63,099 nt of DNA, filler included, from a bacterium (GCA_030615855.1; 6 parts of 6 records of this genome joined end to end with filler, not necessarily neighbours in it), one strand, 5' to 3'. Positions 2,088 to 63,099 are shown, counted from the whole stretch's first letter. Notes: generated by a model from the letters alone, not told the origin. Numbers and translations are program-made.

Positions 2088-2941
2088 AACAAATTGTTAT
2101 TATCAGTGGGAAAGGAGGCACAGGGAAAACGGTCATTACCGCCTCTTTTGCTACTTTGGCTAAAAATAAAGTAATAGCGGATTGTGATGTGGATGCCCCT
2201 AATCTGCATCTTATTCTAAAGCCCGAGGTTTTAAAATCATATCCTTTCCAGAGTGGCTTTGATATCGTCAAGGATGATTCAAAATGCAATTTCTGTCGGG
2301 AGTGTCAGAAGGTTTGTCGCTTTGATGCCATCCGGGATGACCTGTCTATCGATCCTGTAGCCTGTGAGGCTTGTGGGGTCTGCGTAGAGGTATGTCCCCA
2401 GAAAGCATTGAAACTGGTTCCCAAAGTCTCAGGCACTACCTATCTCTCCCGAACAAAGTATGGCCCTTTCTCCCATGCTAAGTTAGGAATTGCTGAGGAG
2501 AATTCTGGCAAGTTGGTTAGTGAGGTGAGGAAGAATGCGGTCAATATGGCTGAAGAAGAGAATAAGGATTTAATTATTATCGATGGTCCCCCAGGGATCG
2601 GCTGCCCGGTCATCGCCTCAGTTACTGGGGCCAATTTGGCATTAATCGTTACTGAACCTACTCTATCTGGAATATGGGACTTGGAACGTGCTCTGGAATT
2701 AACCAGACATTTTCAGATAAGAACCTTGGTCTGCATCAATAAATATGACCTCAACCTTAAGAATAGTCAGAATATTGAAAAATTCTGTAAAGAGAGTAGA
2801 ATAGAGATAGCAGGCCGGATATCCTTTAATCCCCAGGTAACTAAAGCTATGGTTCAGGGAAAAACCATTATGGAATATCCAGAAAGTCCACCAGCCAGAG
2901 AGGTAGAAGAGATGTGGGAGAAAGTAAGGGGTACCGGGTGA
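2084..2941 (+). CDS. MinD-superfamily P-loop ATPase with inserted 2x[4Fe-4S] ferredoxin domain
   Basis: SGKGGTGKT, DCDVDAPN, two CxxCxxCxxxC motifs, DGPPGIGCP. Confidence 0.85.
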   Translation: MKQIVIISGKGGTGKTVITASFATLAKNKVIADCDVDAPNLHLILKPEVLKSYPFQSGFDIVKDDSKCNFCRECQKVCRFDAIRDDLSIDPVACEACGVCVEVCPQKALKLVPKVSGTTYLSRTKYGPFSHAKLGIAEENSGKLVSEVRKNAVNMAEEENKDLIIIDGPPGIGCPVIASVTGANLALIVTEPTLSGIWDLERALELTRHFQIRTLVCINKYDLNLKNSQNIEKFCKESRIEIAGRISFNPQVTKAMVQGKTIMEYPESPPAREVEEMWEKVRGTG

Positions 2942-3110
2942 TCAGGTTATCGGGTAATCGGTGAACAGTAAAAAGTAAAAGAGCGAGAAAGGGGGTAGAT
3001 AAATAGCGAAAGACGAGGAACGAAGGATGATTCAAGAGCAACCGATATTAACTGTTGTTAACCGTTATTAACTGATATTAACTGAGAGTAGGAAGTAAGG
3101 CGAGGACAAG

Positions 3111-3926
3111 ATGGAGAAGCGTAATCTGGAAGAGGAGAAGAGGCTTCTCAAAGAGAAGTTGAAGACCATAAAACATAAGATTTTTATCATCAGTAATAAG
3201 GGAGGGGTAGGCAAGAGTAGTGTGGCGGTCAATTTAGCGGTCGCCTTAGCCCAGGATACGTATCAAGTAGGGCTTCTGGATGCCGACCTTCATGGTCCGA
3301 GCATTGCCAAGATGTTGAGGATCGAAGGTCAAACATTGAGGGGCGGTGAGAATAAGATCATTCCCTTTCCCATCTATTCCAATCTCAAAGTAGTCTCTAT
3401 TGCTTTACTATTAGAGAGTCCGGATTCTCCTCTCATCTGGAGGGGACCACTTAAAATAAAGGCCCTCCAGCAGTTTTTAAAAGATGTGGAGTGGGGGGAG
3501 TTAGATTATTTAGTAGTTGACCTACCACCAGGAACCGGGGATGAGCCATTATCCATCTGTCAATTCATCCCTGAAGCAGATGGGGGAGTTGTGGTTACTA
3601 CACCTCAGGATATTGCTCTTTTAGATTCTCGTAAATGCATCTCTTTCTTGAGGGCATTAAAGATTCCGGTATTGGGTATCTTAGAGAATATGACGGAGTT
3701 CATCTGTCCTCATTGTGGGAAGAAAACAGAGCTCTTTGGTTCTGGAGGGGGAGAGAAAGCCTCCCGGGAGATGAAGGTTCCCTTCTTAGGGAAGGTCCCC
3801 TTTGAGAAGAGGATTGTGGAATCTACGGATGAGGGAAGGCCATTCATTGCCGAGTATGGGGAGACAGAGACTGCTCGGGTCTTTAAAGAGGTCGTTTCCC
3901 GAATAATTGGGGAGATTGAGAAGTGA
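3111..3926 (+). CDS. mrp: Mrp/NBP35 (ApbC) Fe-S carrier ATPase
   Basis: SNKGGVGKS, DADLHGPS, WRGP, DLPPGTGD, ENM..FICPHC. Confidence 0.9.
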   Translation: MEKRNLEEEKRLLKEKLKTIKHKIFIISNKGGVGKSSVAVNLAVALAQDTYQVGLLDADLHGPSIAKMLRIEGQTLRGGENKIIPFPIYSNLKVVSIALLLESPDSPLIWRGPLKIKALQQFLKDVEWGELDYLVVDLPPGTGDEPLSICQFIPEADGGVVVTTPQDIALLDSRKCISFLRALKIPVLGILENMTEFICPHCGKKTELFGSGGGEKASREMKVPFLGKVPFEKRIVESTDEGRPFIAEYGETETARVFKEVVSRIIGEIEK

Positions 3927-4207
3927 GAAGATTTGAAAAGATAGATAGGGCAAGAAACCTACTTGGACTGGGAGAAGAAGCAAGCTTAGAAGAGATAAAG
4001 AGGACCTATCGGGAATTGGCTAAGAAGTTCCATCCGGATAAGAAGAGGGGCGATAAGAGGAAGATGCAGGAGATAAACCAGGCCTATAAGGACCTCTTGA
4101 GTTACTGTGAGAACTATCGCTATCCTTTGAGTAAGGAGAGGATAGCGAAAGAGGATCGGAGGAGTAGGCTGGAAGAGCGCTTCAAGGACGACTGGCTCAT
4201 GAGGTAA
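3923..4207 (+). CDS. small J-domain protein
   Basis: LLGL...EIKRTYRELAKKFHPD...MQEINQAY. Confidence 0.85.
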   Translation: MRRFEKIDRARNLLGLGEEASLEEIKRTYRELAKKFHPDKKRGDKRKMQEINQAYKDLLSYCENYRYPLSKERIAKEDRRSRLEERFKDDWLMR

Positions 4208-4253
4208 AATGATTACGGCGATTATTTAGATGATTATGGCGATGTGATCACCA

Positions 4254-4928
4254 ATGGGATTAAAAATTGATGCTTTAAAGTATGATCAGTGGTATCGATC
4301 ACCAAAAGGGAGTTATGTCGGTGATTTAGAGAGAGAACTCCTAACAGACTTAATGAGGCCAGAGAGGGGGGAAAGTCTTCTCGATGTCGGTTGCGGGACA
4401 GGATATTTCTCCTTCTATTTCTACCAGTTAGGACTCAAGATTACTGGTCTGGATAATTCAGAAGAGATGCTCAATGTGGCACGGAGTAAGATCAAGAAGA
4501 AGGGAGATATTGAGTTCATCTCTGGAGAAGCAACCAGCCTTCCTTTTTCGGACAATTCCTTTGATATCGTTACTCTCATTACCAGTCTGGGATTCATAAA
4601 AGAACCGAGTAAAGCGATTAGAGAAGCCTTCCGGGTAGCAAGCAAGAGGGTAGTTTTAGGAACTCTAAATAAATACAGTATCTGGGCTCTTTATCGGAGG
4701 ATAGAAGGATTATTCAGGCCCACAGTATATAACGAGACAAGGTTCTACTCCTTAAAGGGATTACGGAACCTCGTCATCCCTCAAGCGGAGAATAGTAAGA
4801 TCATCTGGAGAAGCATCCTATTCTTGCCTTCTTTCCCCCGATTGCGAAGAATAGAAAAGAACCTGTCCAGATTCAAAATTCCCTTTGGAGCTTTCTTGGT
4901 CTTAGTAGTTGAACTGCAAAAAGAGTAA
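4254..4928 (+). CDS. class I SAM-dependent methyltransferase
   Basis: LLDVGCGTG motif I; LPFSDNSFDIV. Confidence 0.85.
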   Translation: MGLKIDALKYDQWYRSPKGSYVGDLERELLTDLMRPERGESLLDVGCGTGYFSFYFYQLGLKITGLDNSEEMLNVARSKIKKKGDIEFISGEATSLPFSDNSFDIVTLITSLGFIKEPSKAIREAFRVASKRVVLGTLNKYSIWALYRRIEGLFRPTVYNETRFYSLKGLRNLVIPQAENSKIIWRSILFLPSFPRLRRIEKNLSRFKIPFGAFLVLVVELQKE

Positions 4929-5077
4929 AGGTTACTAACAGTTACTATCGGTTACTAATTGGTTACTAACGGTTACCAAAAAGCAACTATTGGTAACAGT
5001 CGCGATTTATCGAGATGTAGTAACTGCTCGTAACAGTGAAGCGTAGTAACCATTTTGTATAGAGGAGGTCTAACGAG

Positions 5078-5443: not shown

Positions 5444-7760
5444 CGCAAAGACGCCAAACGCTAAACCACAAAATACCTTACTTAAAGAAATAGTACTTTT
5501 TTCTTTTTGCTTAATTATCTTACTAAGTCTTATTCCGGCCTACGCTGAGGCTACGGTGGGTAGGCCGGTTCAGAATGAATTCGTTCGGGTAGAGGTCCTC
5601 TCCTCCCGGAATGAAAAAGGTCCTATTTCTAAAGACCTCTTTCGCTATCCACCCCAGGCTCAGCACCTCTCCTTAAAGATACTGAGCGGGTCCCATAGAG
5701 GAGAAATAGTCAGTTTTGACAATCATCTGGTTGGCCATCGGGGCTATGACATCTTCCTCGATCCTGGGGATAAAGTTCTTGTTCAGATAATCACCACACT
5801 TAGCGGGGAGATCTCCTCCCTCTCCTTAGTGAGCCATATAAGGGATAGGTTCATCCTGCTTCTCATCCTCTTCTTTCTCCTTTCCTTAGTTCTGATGGGA
5901 GGCCTGAAGAAGGGTCTATCCACCGCTCTCTCCCTAATCCTCACCCTGGGCCTGGTCTTCTTCATTATGCTTCCCCTCTTAAAGCTCGGCTTTCCGCCAT
6001 TATTAGTGGGAGTCCTCATCTCCATTATTGCTGCTGCCCTAACCCTCTATTTAATCGGTGGAGGAGGGGTTAAAAGCCTTTCCGCCATCCTGAGCACCAT
6101 TATGGGAGTTCTGATCGTTGGGGGGTTGGCCCTGGTCGGTGCTCACTTCATGCACCTCAATGGTTATCATATGGAGGAATCGAAGACCCTGGTCTTCTAC
6201 CTCCGTCACTCTCTAACCTGCCGATTGAGCGATTTGCGGGGCCTCCTCCTGGTAGGAATTATTATCGGTGGGTTGGGAGTAATGATGGATGTGGCCATCA
6301 GTATGGCCTCCAGTGTCTATGAGATAAAGGGGGCTCACCCCAAGATCAGCCAGAAGGAACTGGTTAAGAGTGGGATGAACGTGGGAAGGGATATCATGGC
6401 CACCATGGCCAATAGCCTCATCCTGGCCTATCTGGGCCTCACCCTTCCCCTAATCCTGACCTTTATGATTATGGGTACCCCCTTCTTGCGTATCTCTAAC
6501 TGGGCCTTCCTGGATGTCGAGATCCTGGCTGCCCTGGCAGGGAGTATCGGCTTTGTCCTGGTCATTCCTCTAACAGTAATAATAACTACTACCCTTTTAT
6601 ACAAGAGGATTCCCTTCTCCGGAATCAAAAGGGCAGCAATCATTCTTCTGCTACTTCTGACCCTGGGAACCGGGGTTCATGCTAAAGATGGCGGGGAGCT
6701 TCTACCGGAGTCTGAGCTTCGCACCCATCCCCTGGTCTTCATTAAGGAAAGAGAGGAGGAGTTTGTTCGGGGAAAGGTTTTAGATATAGATAGAAAAGGC
6801 CCTAAAGAAGAGATAATCACCTTTAAGGTCTTAGGGGGAAGATATAAGAATAGAGTAGTGGATGTACCAAATTACCTAACAGGTAGACCCCAGTACGACC
6901 TTCTATTCAAAGAGGGCGACCAGGCACTCCTTCGCCTATCCCAGGAAGAGTTCTTCATCGCTGACTATGTTCGAGATAGGTTTCTATTCATTCTGGCGGG
7001 AGTATTCATTGCTCTTCTAATCCTGATTGGTAGAGCAAAGGGCCTGCGCACCGCCCTGGCTCTGGGGATAACCTTAGCTCTGGTCCTCTTCCTCTTCCTG
7101 CCTCTTATTAGACTCGGGTTTCCCCCTCTTCCCTTGAGTATTCTGGTCTCCATTCTAGCCACTCTATTTACTCTCTATCTTGTGGCCGGCTTTGGAATTA
7201 AGGGACACTGCGCTATTCTGGGAACCTCCCTGGGTATCCTCATCGCCGCTTTTCTATCCTTAGGAGCAAAGGAGATTTTAAAGATTACTGGCTTCAGCTC
7301 TGAAGGGATAAGGGCCTTAAGTTACTTCTCCCGCCATTATGGAGGAGACCTTATTACCGATATGGGAGGTGTTCTTACCTCAGCCATCATTATTGGTGCC
7401 CTGGGTGTAGTCATGGATGTAGCCATTACTGTCTCTTCTAGTATGTCAGAGATAAAGGGGGCCTATCCCGGGATCGGCCAGAAGGAACTGGTCAAGAGGG
7501 GAATGAACGTGGGAAGAGATATCATGGCCACCATGGCCAATAGTCTCATCCTGGTCTATCTGGGGGGAGGTCTATTAGCCCTCATGATCTATATCGCGGG
7601 AGAATTTCCCCTCATTCAAATCATGAATACAGAATTTGTTGCCTTAGAGGTAACCCGGGCCTTGGCAGGAAGCCTGGGATTTGTCTTCGTCATTCCTGCT
7701 ACGGCTCTCATCAGTGGGTACTGGCTATCTAAACCACTGAGAACACGAAAGAGCAAGTGA
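5412..7760 (+). CDS. tandem (two-module) YibE/F-family membrane protein; start uncertain
   Basis: Two copies of IIG.LGV.MDVAI...GMNVGRDIMATMANSLIL.Y.G, each preceded by a signal-like segment and an extracytoplasmic domain. Confidence 0.8.
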   Translation: MRVMGSLKQSNAKTPNAKPQNTLLKEIVLFSFCLIILLSLIPAYAEATVGRPVQNEFVRVEVLSSRNEKGPISKDLFRYPPQAQHLSLKILSGSHRGEIVSFDNHLVGHRGYDIFLDPGDKVLVQIITTLSGEISSLSLVSHIRDRFILLLILFFLLSLVLMGGLKKGLSTALSLILTLGLVFFIMLPLLKLGFPPLLVGVLISIIAAALTLYLIGGGGVKSLSAILSTIMGVLIVGGLALVGAHFMHLNGYHMEESKTLVFYLRHSLTCRLSDLRGLLLVGIIIGGLGVMMDVAISMASSVYEIKGAHPKISQKELVKSGMNVGRDIMATMANSLILAYLGLTLPLILTFMIMGTPFLRISNWAFLDVEILAALAGSIGFVLVIPLTVIITTTLLYKRIPFSGIKRAAIILLLLLTLGTGVHAKDGGELLPESELRTHPLVFIKEREEEFVRGKVLDIDRKGPKEEIITFKVLGGRYKNRVVDVPNYLTGRPQYDLLFKEGDQALLRLSQEEFFIADYVRDRFLFILAGVFIALLILIGRAKGLRTALALGITLALVLFLFLPLIRLGFPPLPLSILVSILATLFTLYLVAGFGIKGHCAILGTSLGILIAAFLSLGAKEILKITGFSSEGIRALSYFSRHYGGDLITDMGGVLTSAIIIGALGVVMDVAITVSSSMSEIKGAYPGIGQKELVKRGMNVGRDIMATMANSLILVYLGGGLLALMIYIAGEFPLIQIMNTEFVALEVTRALAGSLGFVFVIPATALISGYWLSKPLRTRKSK

Positions 7761-7874
7761 GAAAGTGGGAAAGTGGGAAAGTGAGTTGATAAGCTATCAA
7801 TCTATTAAGTATCTGTGATCTGTGGCAATCTGTATTTTATCTGTGTGAATCTGTGTTGTAAGGAGGTAAAGAGA

Positions 7875-10087: not shown

Positions 10088-10174
10088 GTATTTATCGCTT
10101 AAACATTAAAGTTCAGTTTAACAGTCTGACGGTCTGACAGTCCCACTTTCTCACTTTCCCACCTGCTCACTTTC

Positions 10175-11644
10175 TTACTTTGGGTACTTCTTCAACAATC
10201 CCGTCTTCTCGTTGAATTCCTTTATGAGTTTATCCCACTCTTTCCAGGAGTTGAACTTCTCCTTCCAGTAGTTATCGTCATACCACTGGCGGTCTAATTC
10301 CTCCACATCCTTGCCCTGTTGTTCTATCCAGGTAAAGTACTTCAGGTTATGCATCCTTCTCTTGTCCCAGTAGGAGAGTTCCAGCATCCAGTCTGTACTG
10401 ATACCCATCAGACAGCGATCAAAATCGGCCGCTGCATCACACTCGGCATACTTCCCTCTTTCCTCTCTCAATTCCTGATACCTGGACTGGTAAAGCTCCA
10501 TGGAGTCTGTGGCGATGGTGAAGACGATATCCTTCTCGTTCATCTCGTAATACTTGGCCATCTTGATGGAGCCGATGATATTGGCAACAGACGAGATACC
10601 AAGGAGATCGAGCCTATCCACAATCTCCGGGTCAACCCCCTTCTTCTTCAAATACTTTCTTCCCTTTGGCTCGTTAAAGAGTCTTAAAATTCTCATACAT
10701 TGTTCATCATCGATGTCCGCCACCATATCCATATTCTTTACATTATGTATCCAGGGAACGTGCTTATCACCAATCCCTTCGATTCTGTGGCCTCCATATC
10801 CTGTAAATAAGAGTGTAGGACACTGCAGGGCTTCTCCAGCACAGACCTTTATGGTGGGAAACTTCTCCCGTAAGTAATCGGCACAGCCCAAGGTTCCTGC
10901 TGAACCCTGAGTTAAGAAAATAGCCTTAAGCATTTGATCCTTTTCCTTCTCCTTTTCATAGACCTCTTCTATGGCCTGGCCGGTAACCACATAGTGCCAG
11001 AGGGGATTCCCTATCTCATCGAATTGATTTAAGACTACCACTTCATCCGGTCTGGCATTCTTCAGTTCAGCGGTCTTATCATAGACTTCTTTTACATTCG
11101 ATTCTACTCCCGGAGTAGCATAGATTTCGGAACCCACTTTTTTCAGCCACTCAAACCTCTCTTTAGACATCCCCTCCGGTAATACGGCAATAGAAGGACA
11201 ATTAAGGAGATAAGCATTGTAGGCTCCACCCCGGCAATAGTTTCCAGTCGAAGGCCATAATGCCTTCTGAGTAGTAGGATCGAACTCCCCTTTAACCAGA
11301 CGAGATACTAAGGGCCCGAAGGTCGCTCCCACTTTATGGGAACCAGTAGGAAACCATTTACCAATAATGATAAATATCCTGGCCTTTATTCCAGTTATTT
11401 CTTTAGGGAGTTCCATATAGTTTACCCCATCGAATCCACCACCGGATTTCACCGGTTCATTCTTCCAGGTAATTCTGAACATATTCCTGGAATGTAAATC
11501 CCAGAGACCGATATTCTTCAATTCATCCTTAATGTCCTGGGGAACCTGCTCCGGATGCCTCATCTCCTCATAGGTGGGAAGAATGATATCCCTCTCCCGA
11601 CACCTCTTGATAGTGTTCTCCAAAACCTTCTTTTTATCTTTCAT
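10175..11644 (-). CDS. PLP-dependent fold-type II enzyme (cysteine synthase/ammonia-lyase-like)
   Basis: FPTGSHKVGA (PLP lysine), WPSTGNYCRGG, GSAGT, HRIEGIGDKH; AAGGAGG RBS. Confidence 0.75.
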   Translation of the reverse strand: MKDKKKVLENTIKRCRERDIILPTYEEMRHPEQVPQDIKDELKNIGLWDLHSRNMFRITWKNEPVKSGGGFDGVNYMELPKEITGIKARIFIIIGKWFPTGSHKVGATFGPLVSRLVKGEFDPTTQKALWPSTGNYCRGGAYNAYLLNCPSIAVLPEGMSKERFEWLKKVGSEIYATPGVESNVKEVYDKTAELKNARPDEVVVLNQFDEIGNPLWHYVVTGQAIEEVYEKEKEKDQMLKAIFLTQGSAGTLGCADYLREKFPTIKVCAGEALQCPTLLFTGYGGHRIEGIGDKHVPWIHNVKNMDMVADIDDEQCMRILRLFNEPKGRKYLKKKGVDPEIVDRLDLLGISSVANIIGSIKMAKYYEMNEKDIVFTIATDSMELYQSRYQELREERGKYAECDAAADFDRCLMGISTDWMLELSYWDKRRMHNLKYFTWIEQQGKDVEELDRQWYDDNYWKEKFNSWKEWDKLIKEFNEKTGLLKKYPK

Positions 11645-11775
11645 CTCTCCCTCCTTGAGACACAGATTAACACAGATTGATTACGGATTCACACAGATCA
11701 CAGATAATTGCAGATTTAAAATTGCGATAGTTGAATTGTCATTCGCTCATTCGTGCGAATGTTTCTAGTATCTAT

Positions 11776-13924: not shown

Positions 13925-14182
13925 CTAATACCTACTACTGGGAATAGAATATCAAGTCCGGTAAAATACTAATATCGAAATACTAAACAGATTAAAGCAT
14001 ATCAGGGTACCAGCAAATCAGTGGGTAGATTATCAGAGTACCAGAGTATCAGGTTTTAATAGCTTTTTCCTGATATCCTGATGTACTGATATCCTTCCTA
14101 CTGATATTCTGATTCACTTATTTGTTTTTGTTCTTGGTCATTTGTGCTTTGGATTTGTTTCGGATTTCGTGCTTCGGATTTC

Positions 14183-16717: not shown

Positions 16718-16924
16718 TCTCTACTCCATTTATAGGATACGTCTATCGGTTGCGGTTGCGTAACTCGTCACGGCTATCGTTGAGTAAAATCAAAAATGAA
16801 AAATGAAAATGGAAAATTACAATGCAAAATGTAAAATTACAAATCAAAACTCATTAATTTTGATATTTGATCTTTAATATTTAATTTTTCAGCGCAACCC
16901 TTCAACGTATAACGAAGAACGAGT

Positions 16925-18438: not shown

Positions 18439-18490
18439 CTTACACCTCTCTTCATTTAATTAACATTTAACATTTAATAATGAACAATTA

Positions 18491-20026
18491 TTACTTGCTA
18501 CTTGCTACTTGCTGAGTGGCTCCGGTCATCATGAGTCCTATCTCTTCCTCTTTTGTCTTCTTGGGGTCTACCTCTCCCACAATTCTTCCCTCATACATCA
18601 CTAAGATACGATCGGATAGGGACATAACCTCTGAGAGTTCAGCAGAGACCAAGAGAACCGCCTTCCCCCTCTCCCTCTCCTCTAAGATCTTCTTGTGAAT
18701 AAACTCTATAGCACCGATATCCACCCCTCGCGTAGGCTGGGAAGCAATCAAGAGCCAGGGATGGCGGGATAATTCCCGGGCAACGATCACCTTCTGCTGA
18801 TTCCCTCCAGATAGGGAACTTACCAAAAGCTCCTTATTCGCTGGTCGGATATCAAACCTCTTTATTAGATTCCGAGCATTCTCAGAGATTCTCTTGAAAT
18901 TAAGTCTCAATAACCTCTTCCTCACTGGTGGTTTATAGTGATGTCCCAGGATGAGGTTATCCTCCACAGAATACTCCAGAATCAATCCTCTCTTATGTCT
19001 ATCCTCAGGGATATGAGCCACCCCGGATTCAAAGATCATTCGCGGACTGGCATTGGTTACCTCTTTCCCTCCTAAGACTATCCTCCCCTTTTTCACTTTC
19101 CTTAAACCAGTTAAGACCTCAACCAGTTCTGTCTGACCATTACCTTCTACGCCTGCAATCCCCAATATCTCGCCGGCTCTTATCTCAAAGGAGACTCCTT
19201 TTAGGGTAGGAAGACCGCGATCGCTTAATGCCTCTAGGTCCTTTGCTCTTAGGACAACCTCTCCTATCTGGGAAGGACCCTTCTCTACTTTTAAAAGTAC
19301 CTCTCTTCCTACCATGAAACGTGCTAGTTCTTCCTCTGTAGTCTCCTCGGTCTTCACTACCCCCACCACCCTTCCATCCCTCATTACTGTAACCCAATCG
19401 CTTATCTCCCTAACTTCCTTTAATTTATGGGTGATGAAGATGATGGTCTTCCCCTCTCTCTTTAAAGAGTGCATAATGGTGAATAGTTCCTCAACCTCCT
19501 GGGGGGTTAAGACCGCAGTTGGCTCATCCATGATGAGGATTTCTGCTCCCCGATACAAGACCTTTATGATCTCCACCCTTTGCTGTAATCCTACAGATAG
19601 ATCCTGAATCTTTGCTTCGGGATCAATGATCAGACCATACCTTTTAGAGAGTCCCCTGATATCCTGAGTGGCTTTTTTTCTATCATTAAAAATCTTTCCT
19701 CTTTTAGGCTCCCTTCCCAGAATAACATTCTCTGCCACAGTGAAGGGAGGGATGAGCATGAAGTGCTGATGAACCATCCCAATCCCCTGTTCAATGGCCA
19801 CACTGGGAGAAGAGAGATCAATCTCTTTCCCCCTAATAAGGATCTGGCCCCCATCCTTCTGATAGAGCCCATAGAGTATCTTCATAAGAGTTGACTTCCC
19901 AGCGCCATTCTCTCCCACTAAGGCATGGATCTCTCCAGAATGGACCCTAAAGTTTACGTCGTCATTGGCCACCACTCTAGGAAAGCGCTTAGTGATGTGG
20001 CGCATCTCAACCACTCTTTCAGTCAT
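18491..20026 (-). CDS. nucleoside ABC transporter ATPase (two NBDs)
   Basis: [35 protein letters not shown]. Confidence 0.9.
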
Positions 20027-21864: not shown

Positions 21865-21931
21865 CGCTCTTCACTCTAACGATAGACGATTTCCGCCCTC
21901 GTCCAACTGATCACCGATCACAGATCACTGA

Positions 21932-25052: not shown

Positions 25053-25078
25053 TTCGACTTCTTTCTCTAACCAGAATA

Positions 25079-25407
25079 GGTTAACAAGTTAACAAGGATA
25101 CAAGTTAACAAGATATAGGTTAGGTCAAAGGGTAACGGTAACGAAGCCCGTATCGGTAACGTTGATAGGCTAGGTAAATTTAAAGAGAATATCAGATTAT
25201 CAGAGCATCAGATGGAGAAAGGCAGATATCAGAATTCAGATTAAATCTGATATTCTGGCCATCTGAAATCTCATTCTGGTATTCTGATGTTCTGATACTC
25301 TTTTTTACGACCGCCGTAACCGTAACCGCTAAACGAAACGGGCATCGTAACCCTAACCGTAACTGGATGTTGCCTTATTAACTTGTCAACTAATCAACTT
25401 GTCAACT
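25079..25407. repeat. three nested inverted tandem-repeat pairs (A-B-C-C'-B'-A')
   Basis: A GTTAACAA / A' CTTGTCAA; B GGTAAC / B' GTAACC with GCCCGT/ACGGGC; C ATATCAGA / C' TCTGATAT. Confidence 0.85.
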
Positions 25408-28199: not shown

Positions 28200-28397
28200 C
28201 TCCACCTCCTTTATATACAGATTTCCACAGATATTTACAGATCAACACAGATCACAGATAATTGCGAATCTTTGAGAATATCAGAATATCAGAGTATCAG
28301 AATGAGAATTCAGAAATCAGATTTCAGATTTTATCTGGTATTCTAGTAATCTGATACTCTTTTCACTTTGCATTGCTAATTTTGCATTTTTCATTTT

Positions 28398-33707: not shown

Positions 33708-33755
33708 TCAGGAGAAAGTGGGAAAGTGAGCAGGTGAGAAAGTGAGAATACTGAA

Positions 33756-34274: not shown

Positions 34275-34297
34275 TTCTGAATAGATATGTACGATAG

Positions 34298-34430: not shown

Positions 34431-34457
34431 ATACCTACCTGAAGGGAGGTAAATGAG

Positions 34458-35679: not shown

Positions 35680-35737
35680 ATCTCTTCCCTTTTGTTTCTC
35701 GTCATACATTGAAAGATTACTTAATCATACGGGAATA

Positions 35738-35845
35738 AGGGTGAGTTGTGGGTTGTGAGTCGGGTTGTGGGGGTGAGGGTGTGGGATATATCCCCATCCA
35801 CACAACTCATCCCCGACCCACTACTCACTACCCATCCGCACCCCT
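35738..35845. repeat. G-rich/C-rich inverted 6-mer arrays
   Basis: (GGGTTG/GAGTTG/GGGGTG)n - GGGATATATCCC centre at 35783-35794 - (CATCCC/CACCCC)n. Confidence 0.75.
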
Positions 35846-35893
35846 ATAACCGCAACCGATTGACGTTCAACGTAATCTATTACACTACTACCT

Positions 35894-38091: not shown

Positions 38092-38125
38092 CTCTAACCT
38101 CGATTCATATCTATTATTTGGTTAC

Positions 38126-38231
38126 GGTTAAGGTTAGGTTGTTGGTTTAGTTGCTGGGTTAGGTAGTTGGTCTTTTTAAAAACACCTAACTCTTACCTAA
38201 CTACTAAACTCACTACCTTACCCTAACCCAA
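38126..38231. repeat. dispersed hairpin element, copy 1 (copy 2 at 46084-46185)
   Basis: GGTTAAGGTTAGGT...CTTT/AAA...TACCCTAACCCAA; 10 substitutions in about 99 aligned arm positions versus copy 2. Confidence 0.9.
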
Positions 38232-39668: not shown

Positions 39669-39775
39669 CTTAATCTCCTCCTTCGTTTTAGTAAAATAGG
39701 TGGATTAGTTGGATTGGTTGGATTATAAATCAACCTAATATACTAATCCAACTAATTTCCTTGTCAACTTATTGA

Positions 39776-41065: not shown

Positions 41066-41116
41066 TGATTTTTCTACTTTTCTACTTTTCGACTTTCCTA
41101 CTATCCTACTTTTTTC

Positions 41117-41902: not shown

Positions 41903-41914
41903 TTCATACCTCCC

Positions 41915-42086
41915 TAAACGCTGGCACTCAACGCACTTCGTTTGCCTTGAGGCGTCAGCCGCTGATATAGTACACTGATTGCCGCTGATTTTTTTATCTG
42001 CGTTTATCTGCGTTTTGATCTGCGGTTATTGCTTGATATTCATGCTCTCTCGGATGCCAGCGAAGCGCATCCGGCATCTGCGTTTA
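41915..42086. repeat. dispersed structured element, copy 2; lies in the predicted ftsX leader
   Basis: TAAACGC...GCGTTTA termini; core near-identical to 29506-29678. Confidence 0.9.
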
Positions 42087-42114
42087 GTATATCACGCCTC
42101 CGAAATAATGTCAA
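42086..42114 (-). promoter_or_regulatory. sigma70 promoter for ftsX-envC-ctpA
   Basis: TTGACA-17 bp-TATACT. Confidence 0.75.
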
Positions 42115-42145
42115 AAAAAGACGCCCCTCTTCCTGGGCGCCTTTT
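42113..42145 (-). terminator. intrinsic terminator of the TolB-like gene; U-tract overlaps the next -35
   Basis: Minus strand AAAAGGCGCCC...GGGCGTCTTTTTTT. Confidence 0.65.
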
Positions 42146-42174
42146 ATCCGTGCTAATCTGTTTTTTAATCCGTG

Positions 42175-43558
42175 CTAATCTGTGCTTTGGGACCAGAGAT
42201 GAGGGTTTGGTTTCTCGATGGGCCTCTCCTTCCCGGAGGAGAGGATCTGTTCCCCAGTACCATCGATATTCATAATCCAGAAGTGATACTCTGTACCCTC
42301 TATGGTCCAGAAAGCAAGATGCCTTCCATCAAAAGAGAATTCCGGGCGTTCTAAAACTATTTTCTCCCTGGTCAATGCCACTTGATTCTCTCCTTCCCTA
42401 TTCACTATCCATATGTCATTGGTATTCTTTTCCTCATCCGATCTGGTAAAAACGAGCTTTTTTCCATTCGATGACCAGGAAGGATAATTACTATTATTTC
42501 CTTCTGTTAATTGTCTAAGGTCGCTGCCATCTGTGTTGACCGTCCAGATATTATAATTCGTGAGAAAAAGAATTCTTTTTTCATCTGGAGAGAAGGAGAA
42601 TTTATCTTCATTAAGTTCTGCATCTCCACTTACTTTCTTCTTATTGCTTCCCTCACTATCCATGGTGTAGAGGACGCCTTCTACAGCATAGGCAATCTTC
42701 TTCCCATCTGGAGAGAACTTGAAGCCCCAGTCATTGCTCTCCCATCTATTCTTGGTCAAGGGCTTCTTTTCTTTTCCATCACTGCTTGCCGTCCAGATAT
42801 CCAAAATCTTCCCCTTGCTCAGTCTATTATGAAGGAGATAATCACTATCTGGTGACCAGGCGAAAGGACACCCCAGCCCCAGGTTACTCTTCTTGGGATC
42901 CTTTGGAGAAAATATCTTGGCCTCCGTTCCCTTCTCAACATCTACTACCCGGATCTCCCCATCCTTAGAAAGGAAGGCGACCCTCTCTCCATCTGGAGAG
43001 GGCAGAAACTCATGGGAGACTATTGCTTTACCAGTGGTCAGGGGTTTCTTGTCGCTACCATCTCTATTCACCATCCAGAGGTCAGAATCCAGTTCAAAGA
43101 TAATCCTCTCGTTCCCCTTCAACCACATGGGCCGGAGATAATTCCCCGGGTCATGAGTTAGATTCTTTCTTCCACTTCCATCAGCGTTTGCTATCCAGAT
43201 ATTTTCTCTATCAATATAGAGGAGCTGATCTATAGTAGTAAAGTAAGAGGTAGCCAGAGGCTTACCTTGAGCATCCTTAACCACCGTGCCCAGGGAAATG
43301 ATATAGGTGGTAGAAGGAATGAGCTCTTTTTCAGGATGAAAGATTAAGGTATTTCCCTGCCCCGTTAGATGTTTACTATCTAATGGGGCTTCCCAACTAA
43401 ATCTTCCTTTTACTTGAGGATTGATAGCGAAGTTATCTTCCACGCTCTTCTTATCCATCTCCTTACTGAAGTTGATCCTGATTAGGGTATTAGTCTTTAC
43501 TTCCTGGGCTCCTTTGGAAGGAGAGACAGAGACTATCTCTGGTGGCTGCGCTCCGACA
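42175..43558 (-). CDS. Ig-like (Big_5) domain + TolB/PD40 beta-propeller protein; 5'-partial
   Basis: PPEIVSVSP...INFSKEMDKKSV; repeated SPDG..IAF/IW..DGS..LT motifs; frame open to the contig edge. Confidence 0.8.
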
Positions 43559-45391: not shown

Positions 45392-45561
45392 ATAAACCCC
45401 CATTCTAAGTTAAGTAATTTAGTTAACAAGTTGATAAGTTAATAAGTTAACAAGTCAGTGAAAATTCTCTATTTGGTTATTGGAAATTAGAAATTGGATA
45501 TTGGAAATTAAATCACGTGGGCTTTACTCCCACTTTCTCACCTGCTCACTTTCCCATTTTC

Positions 45562-46047: not shown

Positions 46048-46083
46048 AAAACCTCCATAAAGGGTTAAGGGTTAAGAGTTAAG

Positions 46084-46185
46084 GGTTAAGGTTAGGTAGT
46101 TAGTTTAGTTGTTAGGTCAGGTAGTTGGTCTTTAAACACCTAACCCTTACCCAACTACCAAACCCACTACTTTACCCTAACCCAA
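46084..46185. repeat. dispersed hairpin element, copy 2
   Basis: Aligns end to end with 38126-38231; preceded by an extra (AGGGTTA)n array. Confidence 0.9.
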
Positions 46186-46207
46186 TTATCAAAGATGTTT
46201 CCTATTC

Positions 46208-47443: not shown

Positions 47444-47523
47444 CGTCTTCCTCCTTATTTAAAAATGGTTTACTGTTTACGGTTTACCGTTAACCGTACA
47501 CTGTTCACCGTAAACTTTCCTAC

Positions 47524-48876: not shown

Positions 48877-49008
48877 AATATACCTCCTTGTAAAATAGTT
48901 GACAAGTTGACAAGTTAACAAGTTGAAGAGTTGAAAAATCTAACAAACTAACAAGCAAGCAAACTAACAAACTAAGATTCTTTACTCACCCCTGTTTCCT
49001 ACTTGAAA

Positions 49009-49037
49009 AGTATACTTTAAAATGTTTTTAGGGTCAA
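49009..49037 (-). promoter_or_regulatory. sigma70-like promoter for preT-preA-AOR
   Basis: TTGACC-17 bp-TATACT; the -35 lies at the end of a REP-like hairpin. Confidence 0.6.
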
Positions 49038-49114
49038 CCCCGCTCCTTCCCAAATATGGAATTATGTCATAAAGAAGGGGCGGGGTCAAGTCCTTTCCTC
49101 GGTAAAGATTTGCT

Positions 49115-50881: not shown

Positions 50882-50981
50882 TTTCTCACCTTGTAACCGC
50901 CAAAACGCAAAATTTAATGCAAAGACGCAAAACTAAAGCCTATTTTGCATTTTGCATTTTGCATTTTGAATTTTGCATTGT

Positions 50982-54682: not shown

Positions 54683-54915
54683 AAGAACTGGAAAGAGAAT
54701 TAAGCCTCTACGAGGAATCGATAAGCATAAGCGAAGAGCCTTATATTGAGAATCAATAGAAGGGGCAAGCTTTATAGCGCGCCTTCATAGTGAATAGCAA
54801 ACGATGGCGACGGTTACTACACTTCGCTGTTACTACTGGTTACTACATCCGGCTAAAGCCGGATTGTTACGATCAGTTGCGTAACTCTTAGTAACCGATG
54901 ATAGAGGGGGGGATT

Positions 54916-55443
54916 ATGATAGAGAAAGGGAACGAGGCAGAGAAAGAGGTAATAAAACAAGTAGCAGAGTTTATGTGTGCCACTGCCCGCACGGCACCCA
55001 AGGCAAAGGGAATGGACAATATTGTAACGGCCATTATAAGTGACGAAGATAAGGGGCGCTTAGCAGATGAGATGGAGAAAATCGGAAGAAAGAAAAAGAG
55101 AAAGAGTTTCTTGAGGGATAGTGAGAATATAAGGAAGGTACCCCTTTTAGTCTTGATAGGAACAGAGGCCAGACCCATTGGATTAGCGGTCTGTGGGTTA
55201 TGTGGTTTCAAGGATTGTAAGGAACTGGAAAAGATGGGTGGAATATGTGCCTTCAATAGCGGGGATCTGGGGATTGCTATAGGGAGTGCGGTCTCCCTGG
55301 CAGCCAACTTTCATATAGATAACCGGATTATGTATACTGCAGGGATTGCTGCCTTAAATCTAAGACTATTGGGAAAGGATGTAAGAATCGCTTTCGGTAT
55401 CCCTTTAAGTATCAGCGGGAAGAATCCTTTTTTCGATAGGTGA
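54916..55443 (+). CDS. DUF2148 ferredoxin-domain-containing protein
   Basis: ARTAPKAKG.D, CGLCGFKDC, DLGIAIGSA, DNRIMYTAG, KNPFFDR. Confidence 0.8.
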   Translation: MIEKGNEAEKEVIKQVAEFMCATARTAPKAKGMDNIVTAIISDEDKGRLADEMEKIGRKKKRKSFLRDSENIRKVPLLVLIGTEARPIGLAVCGLCGFKDCKELEKMGGICAFNSGDLGIAIGSAVSLAANFHIDNRIMYTAGIAALNLRLLGKDVRIAFGIPLSISGKNPFFDR

Positions 55444-55509
55444 CACGGATAAACACGGATACCAACACGGATAAGCGCGGATATTAATACGGATCTACAC
55501 GAATAAAAG

Positions 55510-55533
55510 AAAAGGGCTTCTTGAGCCCTTTTT
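55510..55533 (+). terminator. intrinsic terminator
   Basis: AAAAGGGCT-tcttg-AGCCCTTTTT. Confidence 0.65.
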
Positions 55534-55791
55534 AATTTATTTGCTTTTTTATTATGTTTCCAAATTCTTATGTTTTTTAATGAACTTAAAAACCCGCCGA
55601 AAAGGCGGGCATTTGGAAACAACAACAGAGAAAAAAATATACAAACTTCAGGAAACACTGCAACCGCAAAAACGTAAAATTTTAACTTAAAGACGCAAAG
55701 AAAACTAGAACTCGTCTATTTTGTTTCTTCCATTCTCCATTTCCCTGATAACCTGATTACCAGTTATCGTTCACTTGCGGTTAACTATTGC

Positions 55792-56325: not shown

Positions 56326-56340
56326 GATAGGCCTCCTCTA

Positions 56341-56500
56341 AATCGGTTACTATCGGTTAAAAACGGTTAATTTCATTCGGTTAATAACGGTTACTATCGG
56401 TTAATAAAATAAAGTTAAGTGATATGTTGGTTAATATCGGTTGCTTTTTCGCAACTGATATTAACTGGTATTAACCAATATTAACTGATGTGAACTGTTA
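56341..56500. repeat. inverted 10-mer arrays (AATATCGGTT / AACYGATATT)
   Basis: GTTAATATCGGTTGC-tttttc-GCAACTGATATTAAC centre; related arrays at 3040-3085 and 4929-5050. Confidence 0.85.
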
Positions 56501-56506
56501 GTGATT

Positions 56507-56776: not shown

Positions 56777-56999
56777 TTTTACCTCCCCTTTATACACGGA
56801 TCATCACAGATTTATTACGGATTACAGGATGCACTCCGTTAGCATCCTAGAGAGCATCAAATTGATTAATACTTAATCATCAACGGCGGAGAACAAAGTG
56901 CGCTGTTTAATATTAAGCATTGCCACAGATCACAGATATTGAATGCTTGATCCTTGTTCTCGATAGCTTGATAGCTTGATAGCTTCAAAACTTACTCTC

Positions 57000-58019
57000 C
57001 TACTCTCCTACTCTCCTACTTTTTAATGCTGCATGGGCCGCAGCTAATCTCGCGATGGGGACTCTATAGGGGGAGCAGGAGACATAGTCCAGGCCAACCC
57101 GGTGGCAGAACTTGACACTCTCTGGCTCTCCCCCATGCTCCCCACAGATCCCAATCTTTAAACTCTTCCTCGCCCTTCTCCCCTTCCTAACCGCCATCTC
57201 AATCAGTTCCCCTACCCCTTTCTGGTCAAGGACTTCAAAGGGGTTATTATCTAAAACATTCTTTTCTAAGTAGGCAGGAAGGAACTTTCCCTCGATATCA
57301 TCCCGGGAGAAGCCGAAGACCGTCTGGGTGAGGTCGTTCGTCCCAAAGGAGAAGAATTCTGCCTCCCTCGCGATCTCATCTGCGGTAATACAGGCTCTGG
57401 GTAGTTCAATCATGGTTCCCACAGAATAGTTTATCCTCACCTTCTTTCTTTTCATTACCTCATCTGCCATTTTATGAACATCTTCTTTGGTTAATCTCAA
57501 TTCATTTACATGGCCCACCAGGGGGATCATGACCTCCGGGATTACTTTATACCCCTTTTTAGTAAGTTCGCAGGCGGCCTCAAATATCGCCTGGGCCTGC
57601 ATCCTGTAGATCTCTGGGGTAGTAACCCCCAATCTACAGCCCCGATGGCCGAGCATGGGATTCGTCTCTCTCAGGGCCTCTATCTTATTGAGTAGTTTCT
57701 CCTTCTGGGCGATTTTCTTCTTTGATCCTTTCTTGGCCTTCAGGATGGCGATCTCAACCAGTAACTCTTCGCTTCTGGGTAGGAATTCATGTAATGGGGG
57801 ATCTAAAAGTCTAATAGTAACGGGAAGGCCCTCCATGGCCTTAAATATTCCCTTGAAGTCCTCTCTCTGCATGGGCAAAAGTTTCCTCAAAGCCTTTTCC
57901 CTTGTCCTCTCATCCCGGGCTAAGATCATTTCCTGAACGATGGGCATTCTCTTCTCTCCAAAGAACATATGCTCTGTCCGGCATAATCCAATCCCTTCTG
58001 CTCCAAACTCCCGGGCTTT
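57000..58019 (-). CDS. ppdK: pyruvate, phosphate dikinase, C-terminal part
   Basis: [50 protein letters not shown]. Confidence 0.95.
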
Positions 58020-61112: not shown

Positions 61113-61474
61113 TCCTTCTCCATTTCCTCTATTACTTCATCTGGAATATCGAAATTGGCATAGACGTGCTGGACATCGTCATGCTCTTCCACAGCATCGA
61201 TTAAACGTAAAAGTTGCTTCCCCATCTGGGCATCAAGTTTCTTTGTATTTTTAGGGATCATGGTTACCTCTGCTAAATTATATTCGATCCCCTTCTCCTT
61301 AATGGCCTTCTTCACCTTCTCGAAATCGGCTAAAGGGGTGATGACCTCAAAGGTATCCCCTTCCTTTCTCAAGTCCTCTGCTCCGGCCTCTAAGACTACC
61401 TCCATTAACTCATCCTCACTACATTTATTGCTATCCACAGTAATCAAACCCTTCTTCTCAAATACCCTGGCCAC
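61109..61474 (-). CDS. yebC: YebC/PmpR-family protein, C-terminal part
   Basis: FEKKG, EAGAED, EEHDDVQHVYANF; upstream of ruvC. Confidence 0.9.
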   Translation of the reverse strand: MARVFEKKGLITVDSNKCSEDELMEVVLEAGAEDLRKEGDTFEVITPLADFEKVKKAIKEKGIEYNLAEVTMIPKNTKKLDAQMGKQLLRLIDAVEEHDDVQHVYANFDIPDEVIEEMEKE

Positions 61475-61574
61475 NNNNNNNNNNNNNNNNNNNNNNNNNN
61501 NNNNNNNNNNNNNNNNNNTTAATTAATTAANNNNNNNNNNNNNNNNNNNNNNNNNNNNNNNNNNNNNNNNNNNN
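61475..61574. other. artificial scaffold linker
   Basis: N-run + TTAATTAATTAA + N-run. Confidence 0.98.
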
Positions 61575-62315
61575 TATTCTTGCCCTTATTTTCTTCCTCA
61601 TATCCCGTACATAGGGGTCATCGATATTTAAAATGGCAACATCATCCTTCCCCAGGGTATACATCAGCTCGGCCTTTGCTAAGGCCACCCTCTCTACATT
61701 GCCCAGATACTGTAAGTGAACCTCTCCCACATTGGTCATCACCCCGATCTTGGGAGAGGAGATCCTGGTGAGTCTTTCGATCTCTCCTAAGGCACTCATC
61801 CCCAGCTCTAAGACGGCAACCTCATGCTTCCGAGAAAGGCGAAATAGGGTCAGGGGAACCCCGACCTCATTATTGAAGTTCCCTTGGGTTTTTAAGACAG
61901 AGAGCTCTAAAGAGAGGATGGAGGCGATCATATCCTTGGTGGTCGTCTTACCCGTTGACCCGGTCACAGCAACTACTGGTAGATCGAACTTCTCCCGATA
62001 GTATTTAGCGATCTGGCCCAAGGCTTTCAAGGTATCCTTTACTAAAATGGTAACGGGTGACGGACGATGGACGACGGACGACGGACGACGGCGTCCTGGT
62101 AATTTAGAGATTAAAATTCCAGAGGCGCCTTTGCCCAGGACTTCCTGAAGGAAGTCTTGGCCATCATATCTCAATCCCTTTAAGGCAACGAATAACTCGT
62201 CCCTCTTTATCTTGCGGCTATCAGTAGAGATTCCAGAGATCTCTCTCTTTAGATCTCCCTGGATCAGTCTCCCTCCAGTAGCCTCTAGTAATTCCCTAAC
62301 CTTTAGCTTCTCCAT
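61575..62315 (-). CDS. murF: UDP-MurNAc-tripeptide D-Ala-D-Ala ligase; 3'-partial, with in-frame repeat insertion
   Basis: STDSR, TGSTGKTTTK, NFNNEVGVP, LELGMS. Confidence 0.95.
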
Positions 62316-62432
62316 CTCTCCTGCTTACTTTCATTTTACATTGAACATTGAACATTAAGCATTGAGCATTTTGCACTTTGCATTGAACTTCTGCCCTTTC
62401 ACCGTTTCCCCGTTTCTCCCTTTCTCCGCTTC

Positions 62433-63099
62433 TCACTTTCTCACTTTCTCACCTGCTCCCTGCCTCAAGATTTCCCTGGCAACTTCTCTATCGTCGAAGG
62501 AAAGAACCTGGGTTCCAATGGTTTGGGTGGTCTCATGCCCCTTTCCTGCGACTAAGACTAGGTCTCCTGAACCTGCCTCTTCTATTGCCTTCCTGATGGC
62601 CTCCTTCCGATCGAGGATGATGGTATATCTCCCCCCTCCCCTCTTCATCCCTACCTCAATGCTTGAGGCAATACTCAAAGGCTCCTCACTCCTGGGATTA
62701 TCATTGGTGATTATGGTGTAGTCGCTATATTGTGCTGCCACCTCACCCATCAAGGGCCTCTTCGATCTATCCCGATCCCCGCCACAGCCAAAGACTAAGA
62801 TTATCCTTCCCTTTGTCAATTCCCGACAGGTTGAGAGCATATTCTCTAAAGCGTTGTCTGTATGGGCATAGTCAATGATCATCCAGAAGTCCTGGCCCTC
62901 ATCGATCCTCTCAAACCTTCCCGGGATATTCTCTACCCTCTCCAGGCCCTCCTTAATGGCAGTGGGAGGGATTTTCAGAAGAAAAGCAACCCCGATGGCA
63001 GCCAAGGCATTGTAGATGTTATGCTTTCCGGGAAGAGGGAGGTCAATATTCAGATCTCCTCCTTTTGTCTTCACCTTAAAACTACTCCCTTTTAGGCTT
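62433..63099 (-). CDS. murE: MurE ligase, C-terminal part
   Basis: PGRFE, DYAHT, FGCGGDRD, DNPR, AGKGHE. Confidence 0.95.
   Translation of the reverse strand, partial: SLKGSSFKVKTKGGDLNIDLPLPGKHNIYNALAAIGVAFLLKIPPTAIKEGLERVENIPGRFERIDEGQDFWMIIDYAHTDNALENMLSTCRELTKGRIILVFGCGGDRDRSKRPLMGEVAAQYSDYTIITNDNPRSEEPLSIASSIEVGMKRGGGRYTIILDRKEAIRKAIEEAGSGDLVLVAGKGHETTQTIGTQVLSFDDREVAREILRQGAGEKVRK

Follow-up and report, generated by a model that had tools for sequence, protein, structure and literature searches.

Short tandem-repeat arrays in an uncultured sediment bacterium, read as the arms of small and probably mobile hairpin elements

The stretch of DNA analysed here, 63,099 nucleotides from an uncultured sediment bacterium and called the window throughout, carries arrays of short units in most of its longer intergenic gaps. 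These arrays are fairly likely to be the arms of many small hairpin elements that resemble the intervening sequence (IVS) of 23S rRNA and fill the slot that runs from a stop codon to the ribosome-binding site (RBS) of the following gene. Most of these elements enclose no open reading frame (ORF), and their arms stand paired, nested or solo. The elements are probably mobile. In sister genomes, arms of the same type enclose two families of small ORFs. The occupant of a given slot differs between relatives, which show an empty slot, an ORF-less hairpin or an ORF cassette, and comparison of the copies at the level of sequence shows dispersal of whole elements.

Census, folding and orientation of the arrays

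Arrays with a period of 6-12 and at least 2.5 copies were collected, with genes called by a codon-usage model, and for the gap statistics 382 kb of the sister genome G001 were added to the window (445 kb). Within the window, 1388 of 6172 intergenic bases lie in arrays (225 bp/kb), compared with 560 of 56487 coding bases (9.9 bp/kb), and 26 of the 35 gaps of at least 30 nt contain one. Window and G001 sample together have arrays in 131 of 258 gaps, versus 0-4 per dinucleotide shuffle (10 shuffles). The units named in a first-pass annotation of the window are present at 18 of 18 coordinates given there, and the arrays also appear in the output of Tandem Repeats Finder (TRF). The 445 kb hold 204 arrays of short units head to tail (TRF), from several families per genome, with periods of 7 (74 arrays), 8 (69), 10 (31) and 9 (19), and about half of the arrays are paired.

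RNA folding of the window gaps of at least 60 nt (n = 29), with 30 shuffles each, gave z < -2 in 16 gaps and z < -3 in 12. The gap at 25053-25385 folds into one hairpin of ~300 nt (-113.8 kcal/mol, z = -9.36) that none of 100 shuffles equalled. Its nested arrays (25053..25407, minus strand) follow the order A B C / C' B' A', with the pairs TTGACAAG/CTTGTTAA, GGTTACG/CGTAACC and ATCAGA/TCTGAT around a centre without an ORF. Five gaps with solo arms only have z > 0 and fold no better than their shuffles. The inverted pairs reported at first pass are thus borne out by the 16 longer gaps that fold better than shuffles, and the long RNA hairpins it foresaw inside operons appear as predicted folds within strings of co-directional genes.

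By symmetry, a paired hairpin has X ahead of X' whichever strand is read, so only the choice between X..X' and X'..X, together with the solo arms, is informative about orientation. Across 135 co-directional array gaps, the strand asymmetry of 6-mers was 708, compared with 574 ± 31 after random flipping, and 1 of 1000 permutations reached 708; the claimed polarity of arms on the transcribed strand withstood this test. Sense and antisense counts were 11:1 for TCTGTG, 7:0 for AAAGTG and 9:0 for TACGGT, and AAAGTGAG-type arrays were sense in 7/7 gaps. Within the ACAGAT family, which combines a conserved heptamer core with variable spacers of 3-4 nt, CRCRGAT arms (n = 24) start a median of 2 nt past the upstream stop codon, often within the stop itself, and the distance from the end of ATCYGYG arms (n = 45) to the next start has a median of 26 nt. 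A TTTGCG-type 3' arm of ~50 nt ends directly at the next RBS each time (window 50882-50925, L001 ~1520-1585, L216 7106-7173 and the downstream flank of L173), and it looks as if this arm supplies or abuts the RBS.

The elements are probably co-transcribed with the operon, with their arms pairing and RNase III cutting the stem, as in the 23S rRNA IVS; by that analogy the insert would be harmless to the operon. Co-transcription would also account for the fixed polarity, with the 5' arm at the stop codon and the 3' arm delivering the RBS. An RNase III gene is present in 3/5 relatives.

Host regulation offers another explanation, in which the arrays are tandem sites bound by a host protein, in RNA or in DNA, accompanied by selected intercistronic stabiliser hairpins, and ORFs merely settle there. 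Strand polarity, placement at the stop codon or RBS and the conserved ACAGAT heptamer core with its variable spacers all fit this explanation, as do the translational or regulatory roles suggested for such repeats in the available parts of MacGregor 2015 (PMC4679880) and of a bioRxiv 2022 Nostoc preprint. We nevertheless consider it unlikely, since the arrays have no apparent tie to any gene function class, occur in-frame inside genes as well, are copied across unrelated junctions as entire degenerate hairpins, and differ in unit family, or are missing, at the same junction in close relatives.

Recurring elements, changing slots and ORF cassettes in related genomes

ORF-less hairpins recur with 87-100% identity across non-orthologous sites. 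Several other arms show the same kind of recurrence. The degenerate GGTTAGG-type hairpin of 110 nt at 38092..38231 (minus strand, z -6.79) has copies at 46048..46207 (87%; minus strand, z -3.25) and at L191 of G001 (94%), both non-orthologous; the G001 junction corresponding to the second copy holds a ATATCCAAT-type pair. One ORF together with its arms stands at three sites (L164, L168 and L169) with ~90-95% identity, and the homology ends at the outer arm ends. The identity of these copies lies well above the neutral level: divergence at 4-fold sites is ~41%, both between the window and G001 (67/165) and between the window and L082 (52/127).

Replication slippage combined with template switching between arms (quasi-palindrome correction) might instead build and homogenise arrays in place, with no mobile element. 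The GGTTACTAC-type inverted pair at 54683..54897 (plus strand, z -3.9), the sole array block conserved in G001, differs there by point changes and a few extra letters, one additional unit among them, so slippage does occur; GACAGAT copy number varies among strains according to the available part of PMC4990558, and high neutral divergence could blur descent. This process cannot, however, yield degenerate hairpins with 87-100% identity at unrelated sites when neutral sites differ by 41%, and it leaves the strand polarity, the 19/19 enclosed ORFs described below and identical 31-nt arrays within one gene unexplained. We regard it as quite unlikely, and the first-pass view that these are not plain slippage microsatellites is sustained by the idiosyncratic hairpins shared between non-orthologous sites.

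The intragenic arrays just mentioned are two perfect in-frame (CTCCGAA) x4.4 arrays (12559-12590 and 12987-13017, minus strand; TRF), identical over 31 nt at two places of one amidohydrolase gene, and CTCCGAA also serves as the unit of hairpin arms in G001 gaps. A paralogous amidohydrolase carries an in-frame GTAAACC-type array (50712-50738, minus strand) in the loop equivalent to 12987-13017; this array is retained in the G001 ortholog, and another repeat occupies the place in G002. One amidohydrolase loop displays three different repeats across three genes or genomes. TsaD and a Mur ligase have in-frame arrays too (36245-36271, 62059-62091), and the in-frame heptamer arrays add 9-12 residues.

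Some recurring DNA is not built of arrays. A ~70-nt element is found at 29325-29728, at 41903-42174 and at six G001 sites (L185, L187, L194, L207) with 94-100% identity; at 41903..42186 (minus strand, z -3.35) it is flanked by CGCAGAT-/CACGGAT-type arms. It has a GC-rich central hairpin, and a neighbouring ~65-nt element recurs as well. These elements may form another class of small mobile repeats, or they may be a small RNA. At 56798..57020 (minus strand; TRF), GGAGAGTA x3.5, AAGCTATC x3 and ATCTGTG repeats flank another non-array element upstream of the HU gene. Its 106 nt (56829-56934) are 97% identical to a non-orthologous G001 gap (L213 4880-5028) and are missing from the orthologous G001 junction.

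Orthologous junctions reveal the turnover of slot occupants. The gap between the epimerase and deoxyhypusine-synthase genes has five different array sets in five relatives, and at the deoxyhypusine-synthase junction L081, L082, L083 and L099 have four arrays other than that of the window. Several junctions have inverted pairs in both the window and G001 with differing units. Near-empty slots also exist in G001: 1 nt (L216) stands where the window has 169 nt at 2942..3110, and 16 nt where it has 100 nt at 50882..50981. Four junctions with an ORF cassette could be compared with the other genome. At three of them that genome shows a hairpin without an ORF, built of units from another family, and at the fourth another short element. 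Slots seem to be refilled. The suggestion that the arrays are empty sites or scars of mobile cassettes was not supported in its strict sense when junctions were aligned: empty states exist, as the 1-nt and 16-nt gaps show, but no junction preserves the same arms minus the ORF (0/4), and for this reason a strict scar is not shown.

The order of genes near the deoxyhypusine-synthase gene varies as well, L081 and L084 being without Ldh, LarE or both. Relatives also have extra genes of 1-3.5 kb where the window gaps are short (L082 1582-2650, against window 30614-30664; L001 8831-12350; L002 1777-5004), one of them a metallo-beta-lactamase fold on the opposite strand.

ORF cassettes are frequent in the sister genomes. 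G001 (1.3 Mb) has 10 PF05635 and 4 PF13366 matches, G002 (1.1 Mb) 2 and 3, and for 5 tested ORFs family membership was confirmed by TIGR02436 or TIGR04256 scores above cut-off. TIGR02436 proteins are four-helix bundles of Avd/S23p type, and TIGR04256 comprises the nuclease-like GxxExxY proteins. By eye, tandem arrays stand on both sides of 12/12 TIGR02436 and 7/7 TIGR04256 ORFs of G001 and G002, so that both passenger families, which the first-pass annotation had offered as guesses, are indeed found amid such arrays. The ORFs are promoterless, encode ~120-140 aa and are co-directional with both neighbouring genes in 19/19 cases. Compared with 383 ordinary genes, the flank inverted-match scores fell at or above the 95th percentile in 14/19 cassettes (Mann-Whitney p = 8e-10), and three low scores come from ORF bounds that were set too wide. 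The layout is mostly X ORF X'; in some cases (L171, L172) it is nested twice, the outer arms being of ACAGAT type, and L173 and L174 show X ORF X..X'.

A direct bridge to the window is provided by L171 of G001, a four-helix cassette whose neighbours are a histidine kinase and a response regulator. Its arms match the B arms of 25053-25385, the non-periodic part included (27/27 nt), and the centre of the window gap holds another hairpin where L171 has the ORF.

Cassettes of this kind extend beyond close relatives. At unrelated loci (a Saganbacteria metagenome-assembled genome (MAG), three other records and L105), 5/5 four-helix ORFs have arrays, four as simple inverted pairs and L105 with a duplicated hairpin. 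On cyanobacterial plasmids, heptamer arrays lie directly upstream of the ORF in 5/5 cases, with a clear inverted partner in 3/5. Two such plasmids, of Picosynechococcus (L223) and Anabaena sp. 90 (L224), carry four-helix cassettes with heptamer arms amid cas genes (cas10/cmr3 and cas6/cas4), and the Anabaena cassette has ~40 tandem units upstream. Across 21 genomes, PF05635 copies per Mb correlate with array density (Spearman 0.70, p = 4e-4, relatedness ignored), and 8/10 genomes without PF05635 have no array in ~40 kb. G022 differs from this pattern of cassettes, with 19 partial PF05635 matches in facing pairs 150-400 nt apart (for example C7:104028-104554 and C2:122174-122711). In G001, ACAGAT-type hairpins also stand on either side of two ORFs that match no Pfam family (146 aa at L208 4548-4988 and 136 aa at L202 503-913); these may be further passenger families.

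Several observations weigh against reading the arrays as arms of mobile, IVS-like elements. No cassette ORF or recognisable remnant was found in the window by six-frame search with profiles of both families, and the same profile search of seven close loci gave nothing significant, the best match being a 15-residue piece in L082 (E = 1.3). In the G001 sample, array gaps outnumber ORF cassettes by ~26:1 (105 gaps, 4 ORFs), so the ORFs could be lodgers in pre-existing hairpins. The flanks of L178 are direct arrays, not inverted ones, and L177 has one inverted unit only. G009 and G015 have 9 and 4 ORFs with no array in the 40 kb sampled. Among the four orthologous pairs, the same arms with and without ORF were seen in none, a clean target-site duplication was not seen at two filled-versus-empty junctions, and the high neutral divergence means that unalignable gaps alone prove little. 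Arms tend to be alike where their ORFs are alike, but the signal is weak (Mantel r = 0.22, p = 0.02, 14 cassettes); the test left out L168 and L169 as near-copies of L164, L014 as a 93-residue piece, and five plasmid loci.

The hairpin elements are probably copied as DNA-level units, and the candidate routes are recombination between arrays of the same family and cleavage of an extruded hairpin by the GxxExxY nuclease; slippage would then tune the number of units. The GxxExxY proteins keep an intact PD-(D/E)XK motif, with D69, E79 and K81 invariant in 7/7. Their structural model (pLDDT 92.9) matches the cores of lambda exonuclease, Cas4 and Hjc resolvase with TM 0.4-0.59, and a sequence search against solved structures gave no match at E <= 0.01. 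For the four-helix ORF, the structure matched is that of XCC0516, a pentamer (PDB 2gsc, E = 1e-10). A more far-reaching proposal, which we put forward only tentatively, is that heptamer-type arrays are traces left by a single class of mobile cassettes, widespread and undescribed, whose own small proteins specify and move the arms. Each subunit of the pentameric four-helix protein would bind about one repeat unit, cleavage of the extruded hairpin would fall to the GxxExxY nuclease, the 23S rRNA IVS would be a special case in rRNA, and most arrays would be ORF-less dependants.

A templated repeat-writing activity had also been envisaged at first pass. In this scheme an RNA template would be copied into repeats by a reverse transcriptase with an Avd-like helper, much as a diversity-generating retroelement (DGR), a retron or telomerase works. 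The distant relationship of the four-helix ORFs to DGR Avd proteins lends it some appeal (model NF033474, E = 3e-4, 21 bits, below the cut-off of 80), but no RVT_1 match was found in the related, incomplete genomes G001-G005, no template/variable repeat pair was seen, and GxxExxY cassettes occur without any Avd. With no RVT_1 in these five incomplete genomes and an Avd match below cut-off, these elements do not qualify as DGRs, and repeat writing is very improbable. The accompanying remark that the window itself holds no enzyme for such an activity agrees with our searches, in which neither an enzyme nor a cassette ORF was found there.

Contigs tend to break at arrays, as would be expected if the repeats were artefacts of short-read metagenome assembly, and the pieces listed for run X2 end at array edges. 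However, the same architecture is found in separate assemblies from other records and collections and in finished cyanobacterial plasmids. Other contigs, from run X1, reproduce 24498-25518 with 0 differences; X1 is possibly the source sample and therefore counts as a second assembly, not a second sample. The chance that the arrays are artefacts is next to nil. Excision at 25053-25385 was considered as well: joints skipping ~260 nt (25112/25113 to 25374) exist in X1, X2, X3 and X6, with sides of only 18-30 nt. They are taken to be other loci that share the outer arms and not to reflect excision at this site.

Array sites and gene content of the window

The window consists of six contigs glued by N44-TTAATTAATTAA-N44 spacers (9795-9894, 15663-15762, 43559-43658, 58020-58119 and 61475-61574) and is therefore not one continuous stretch. 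The fragments of inositol phosphatase, YebC, Mur ligase and a PEP-utilising enzyme at the spacers were cut by the joining and do not reflect biology. Anaerobe-type genes include aldehyde:ferredoxin oxidoreductase, a BcrAD-type activase, DUF169, deoxyhypusine synthase and many Fe-S proteins. A TyrRS search among species genomes gave two close relatives, L001 (97% aa) and L002 (90% aa); the next matches, at <=60%, belong to Saganbacteria, Margulisiibacteriota and Nitrospirota MAGs. The window, which has no tRNA or rRNA, yielded 0 Rfam matches at gathering thresholds. In a class A penicillin-binding protein (52289-54682), Pfam places an S1 (OB-fold) domain between the transglycosylase part and the transpeptidase part.

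The series opens with solo arrays in a gap flanked by co-directional genes (2942..3110, plus strand; TRF; fold z +1.5); they include the 10-bp unit AACTGATATT x4.6 at 3040-3085 (plus strand; TRF), which has a TAACTGA core inside. They are followed by inverted TAACGGTTAC-type arrays at 4926..5077 (plus strand, x5 at 4926-4976; TRF; z -2.07), where the G001 junction has a different 68-nt element. At 7755..7865 (plus strand), AAGTGRGA x3.6 begins inside the upstream stop codon and gives way to an ATCTGTG-type array that reaches the next RBS. The gene at 10175-11644 on the minus strand is bracketed by AGAAAGTG x4.8 and CAGACTGT x2.8 directly 3' of its stop, in sense (10121..10181; TRF), and by a solo ATCTGTG-type arm with 10-bp spacing, x3.8, ahead of its RBS (11645..11775, z +0.37).

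The minus-strand sites that come next comprise inverted TATCAGGA-type arrays at 13925..14182 (TRF; z -3.21), with an 85-nt part that is 89% identical to a non-orthologous G001 gap (L189); AAAATGA x9.4 and TTAATAT x5.3 at 16718..16924 (TRF; z -2.39); GCAAGTA x3.1 and ATGTTAA x2.6 at 18439..18513, where the gap is 52 nt (TRF); and GATCAGT x4.6 with its partner at 21865..21937 (TRF; z -3.05). At 28206..28416, also on the minus strand, ATGAAAA x8 lies past a stop, an ATCAGA/TCTGAT pair follows, and ATCTGTR stands ahead of the deoxyhypusine-synthase RBS.

On the plus strand, GTGATCR runs across a stop codon at 33690..33755 and continues into GAGAAAGT x4.6; a ~33-nt element of this site is found again at 45520-45560 (97% over 33 nt). 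Inverted GGTTTAC/GTAAACC arrays precede the gene for a thiamine-binding protein (34275..34457, plus strand, z -3.19), and 63 nt of them are 89% identical to G001 L184. Minus-strand sites then resume with a strongly folding gap that has an AACTCAC-type array (35710..35893, z -7.05), ATCCAACTA x3.2 at 39669..39775 (TRF; z -2.33), and a perfect AAGTTGAC x3.4 with AAAATG-type and GTAGAAAA x5.5 arrays near the junction 41066-41116 (40914..41116; TRF). Three serial solo arrays span stop to RBS at 45404..45561 (minus strand, z +0.63), namely a AAAGTGAG-type array, TTCCAAT x4.4 and CTTRTTAA x4.4, and G001 has GGTTTAC-type arms there.

GTTTACC x4.3 at 47444..47523 (minus strand; TRF) belongs to the same family as its G001 counterpart in another arrangement. 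The minus strand further holds TGTCAACT x4.8 ahead of an RBS together with TTTGTTAG x4.5 (48897..49114; TRF), as well as GCAAAAT x5.4 past the TyrRS stop with a TTTTGCG-type partner ending at the RBS (50882..50981, z -2.19). A convergent gap at 55443..55791 contains ACACGGATAA x6.1 from the stop codon onwards (TRF; z -3.3). Inverted 10-bp AATATCAGTT/ATTAACCGAT arrays lie 3' of the HU gene (56326..56506, minus strand, z -4.49), where G001 has a AACGGATTC-type inverted pair. The last site, at 62316..62450 (minus strand; TRF; z +1.02), has a AAAGTGAG/CGGAGAAA-type array x6.8 past the stop and then TCAATGT x4.7, with other arrays in G001 (L184).

Comparison with known systems

Among known systems, the 23S rRNA IVS is close in architecture. 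The available part of Warrier 2016 (PMC4990558) describes a Coxiella IVS with an S23p ORF whose ends pair in a 28-bp stem; its 5' end has two or three tandem GACAGAT heptamers, their number differing between strains, and RNase III cleaves the stem at the first GACAGAT repeat, by experiment, the only mechanism here with experimental backing. The IVS has been called a selfish element and possible remnant of transposition, and S23p-bearing IVS have been studied in Coxiella, Leptospira and others. The elements described here share a PF05635/TIGR02436 ORF in the loop (12/12 in the sister genomes and none in the window), complementary ends that form a long stem, as the folds in 16/29 gaps (z < -2) and the cassette flanks outscoring ordinary genes indicate, and probably carriage on the host transcript. 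GACAGAT is also the core of the ACAGAT family of the window. Unlike the IVS, they stand between or inside protein genes and not in helix 25 or 45 of 23S rRNA. They also occur by the dozens per 100 kb, mostly without an ORF, with many arm families, nested forms and a second passenger family (GxxExxY), and cutting by RNase III would apply to them by analogy only.

Cyanobacteria have short tandemly repeated repetitive (STRR) heptamers. TAACTGA direct repeats are reported in the available part of MacGregor 2015 (PMC4679880) from Beggiatoaceae, Cyanobacteria and Bacteroidetes, forward and just upstream of start codons, without a mechanism. The window agrees with both in its tandem units of ~7 bp, mostly intergenic, forward just upstream of starts, sometimes inside ORFs and of many types per genome. 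At 3040-3085, TAACTGA occurs as a core twice in the 10-bp unit, in sense and ~25 nt ahead of the start at 3111, and again at 56453-56497; it is one among many unit families. The window differs in that 8- and 10-bp units are also common (74, 69 and 31 arrays of 7, 8 and 10 bp), about half of the arrays are paired, and the gene content of the host is anaerobe-like, its named TyrRS relatives reaching <=60% and none of them being cyanobacterial. The small dispersed repeats (SDR) of Nostoc punctiforme, attributed to work by Elhai in 2008, are very small elements reported to insert into tandem heptamer arrays and hairpins.

The nearest mechanistic analogue is the REPIN, mobilised by RAYT transposases according to the available part of Bertels and Rainey 2011 (PMC3116915). 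Like REPINs, the elements described here include inverted doublets that fold into hairpins and are scattered through extragenic DNA, and non-autonomous spread, singlets read as decayed doublets and clusters formed by insertion into existing elements are further likenesses. The arms, however, are tandem short units and not REP palindromes of 20-40 nt, the associated genes lie inside the hairpin in multiple copies, and the RAYT Y1 transposase (PF01797) was found in 0/5 related, incomplete genomes. Compared with miniature inverted-repeat transposable elements (MITE), inverted arms are present, two filled-versus-empty junctions lack a clear duplication, and no transposase was identified. Xanthomonas GGGAATC heptamers form 70-75 convergent pairs per genome, able to fold into stem-loops, in the available part of Rehm 2015 (PMC4692102); repeat type (single or paired) is kept across species, length varies, and the authors found no link to mobile elements. 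These pairs share the convergent heptamer arrays, but consist of one G-rich unit studied as a G-quadruplex.

In the portions available, Mori 2018 (PMC6344855) reports that tandem heptamers are commoner than any other intergenic periodicity in prokaryotes and sees 'no clear clue' to their function. Within the literature searched, which did not cover Elhai 2008, no paper ties heptamer arrays to these cassettes; the nearest is the GACAGAT note in the available part of Warrier 2016 (PMC4990558). The literature has so far treated STRR arrays, TAACTGA repeats, Xanthomonas heptamer pairs and the rRNA IVS as separate curiosities, and they are tied together here: arms of the same type surround two named, uncharacterised protein families in every case examined, and the ORF-less copies look like dispersed mobile DNA. 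For annotation and assembly, such elements matter because they break short-read contigs, position stop codons and RBS, and add in-frame peptides to enzymes. An old descriptive puzzle thereby becomes testable, the questions being whether these proteins bind or cut their own arms, whether operon transcripts lose the elements through RNase III and in what way slots come to be refilled. The arrays of the window are best read as the same kind of thing as the cyanobacterial STRR arrays and the 23S rRNA intervening sequence, and repeat-armed cassettes may explain the long-puzzling heptamer repeats of bacteria.

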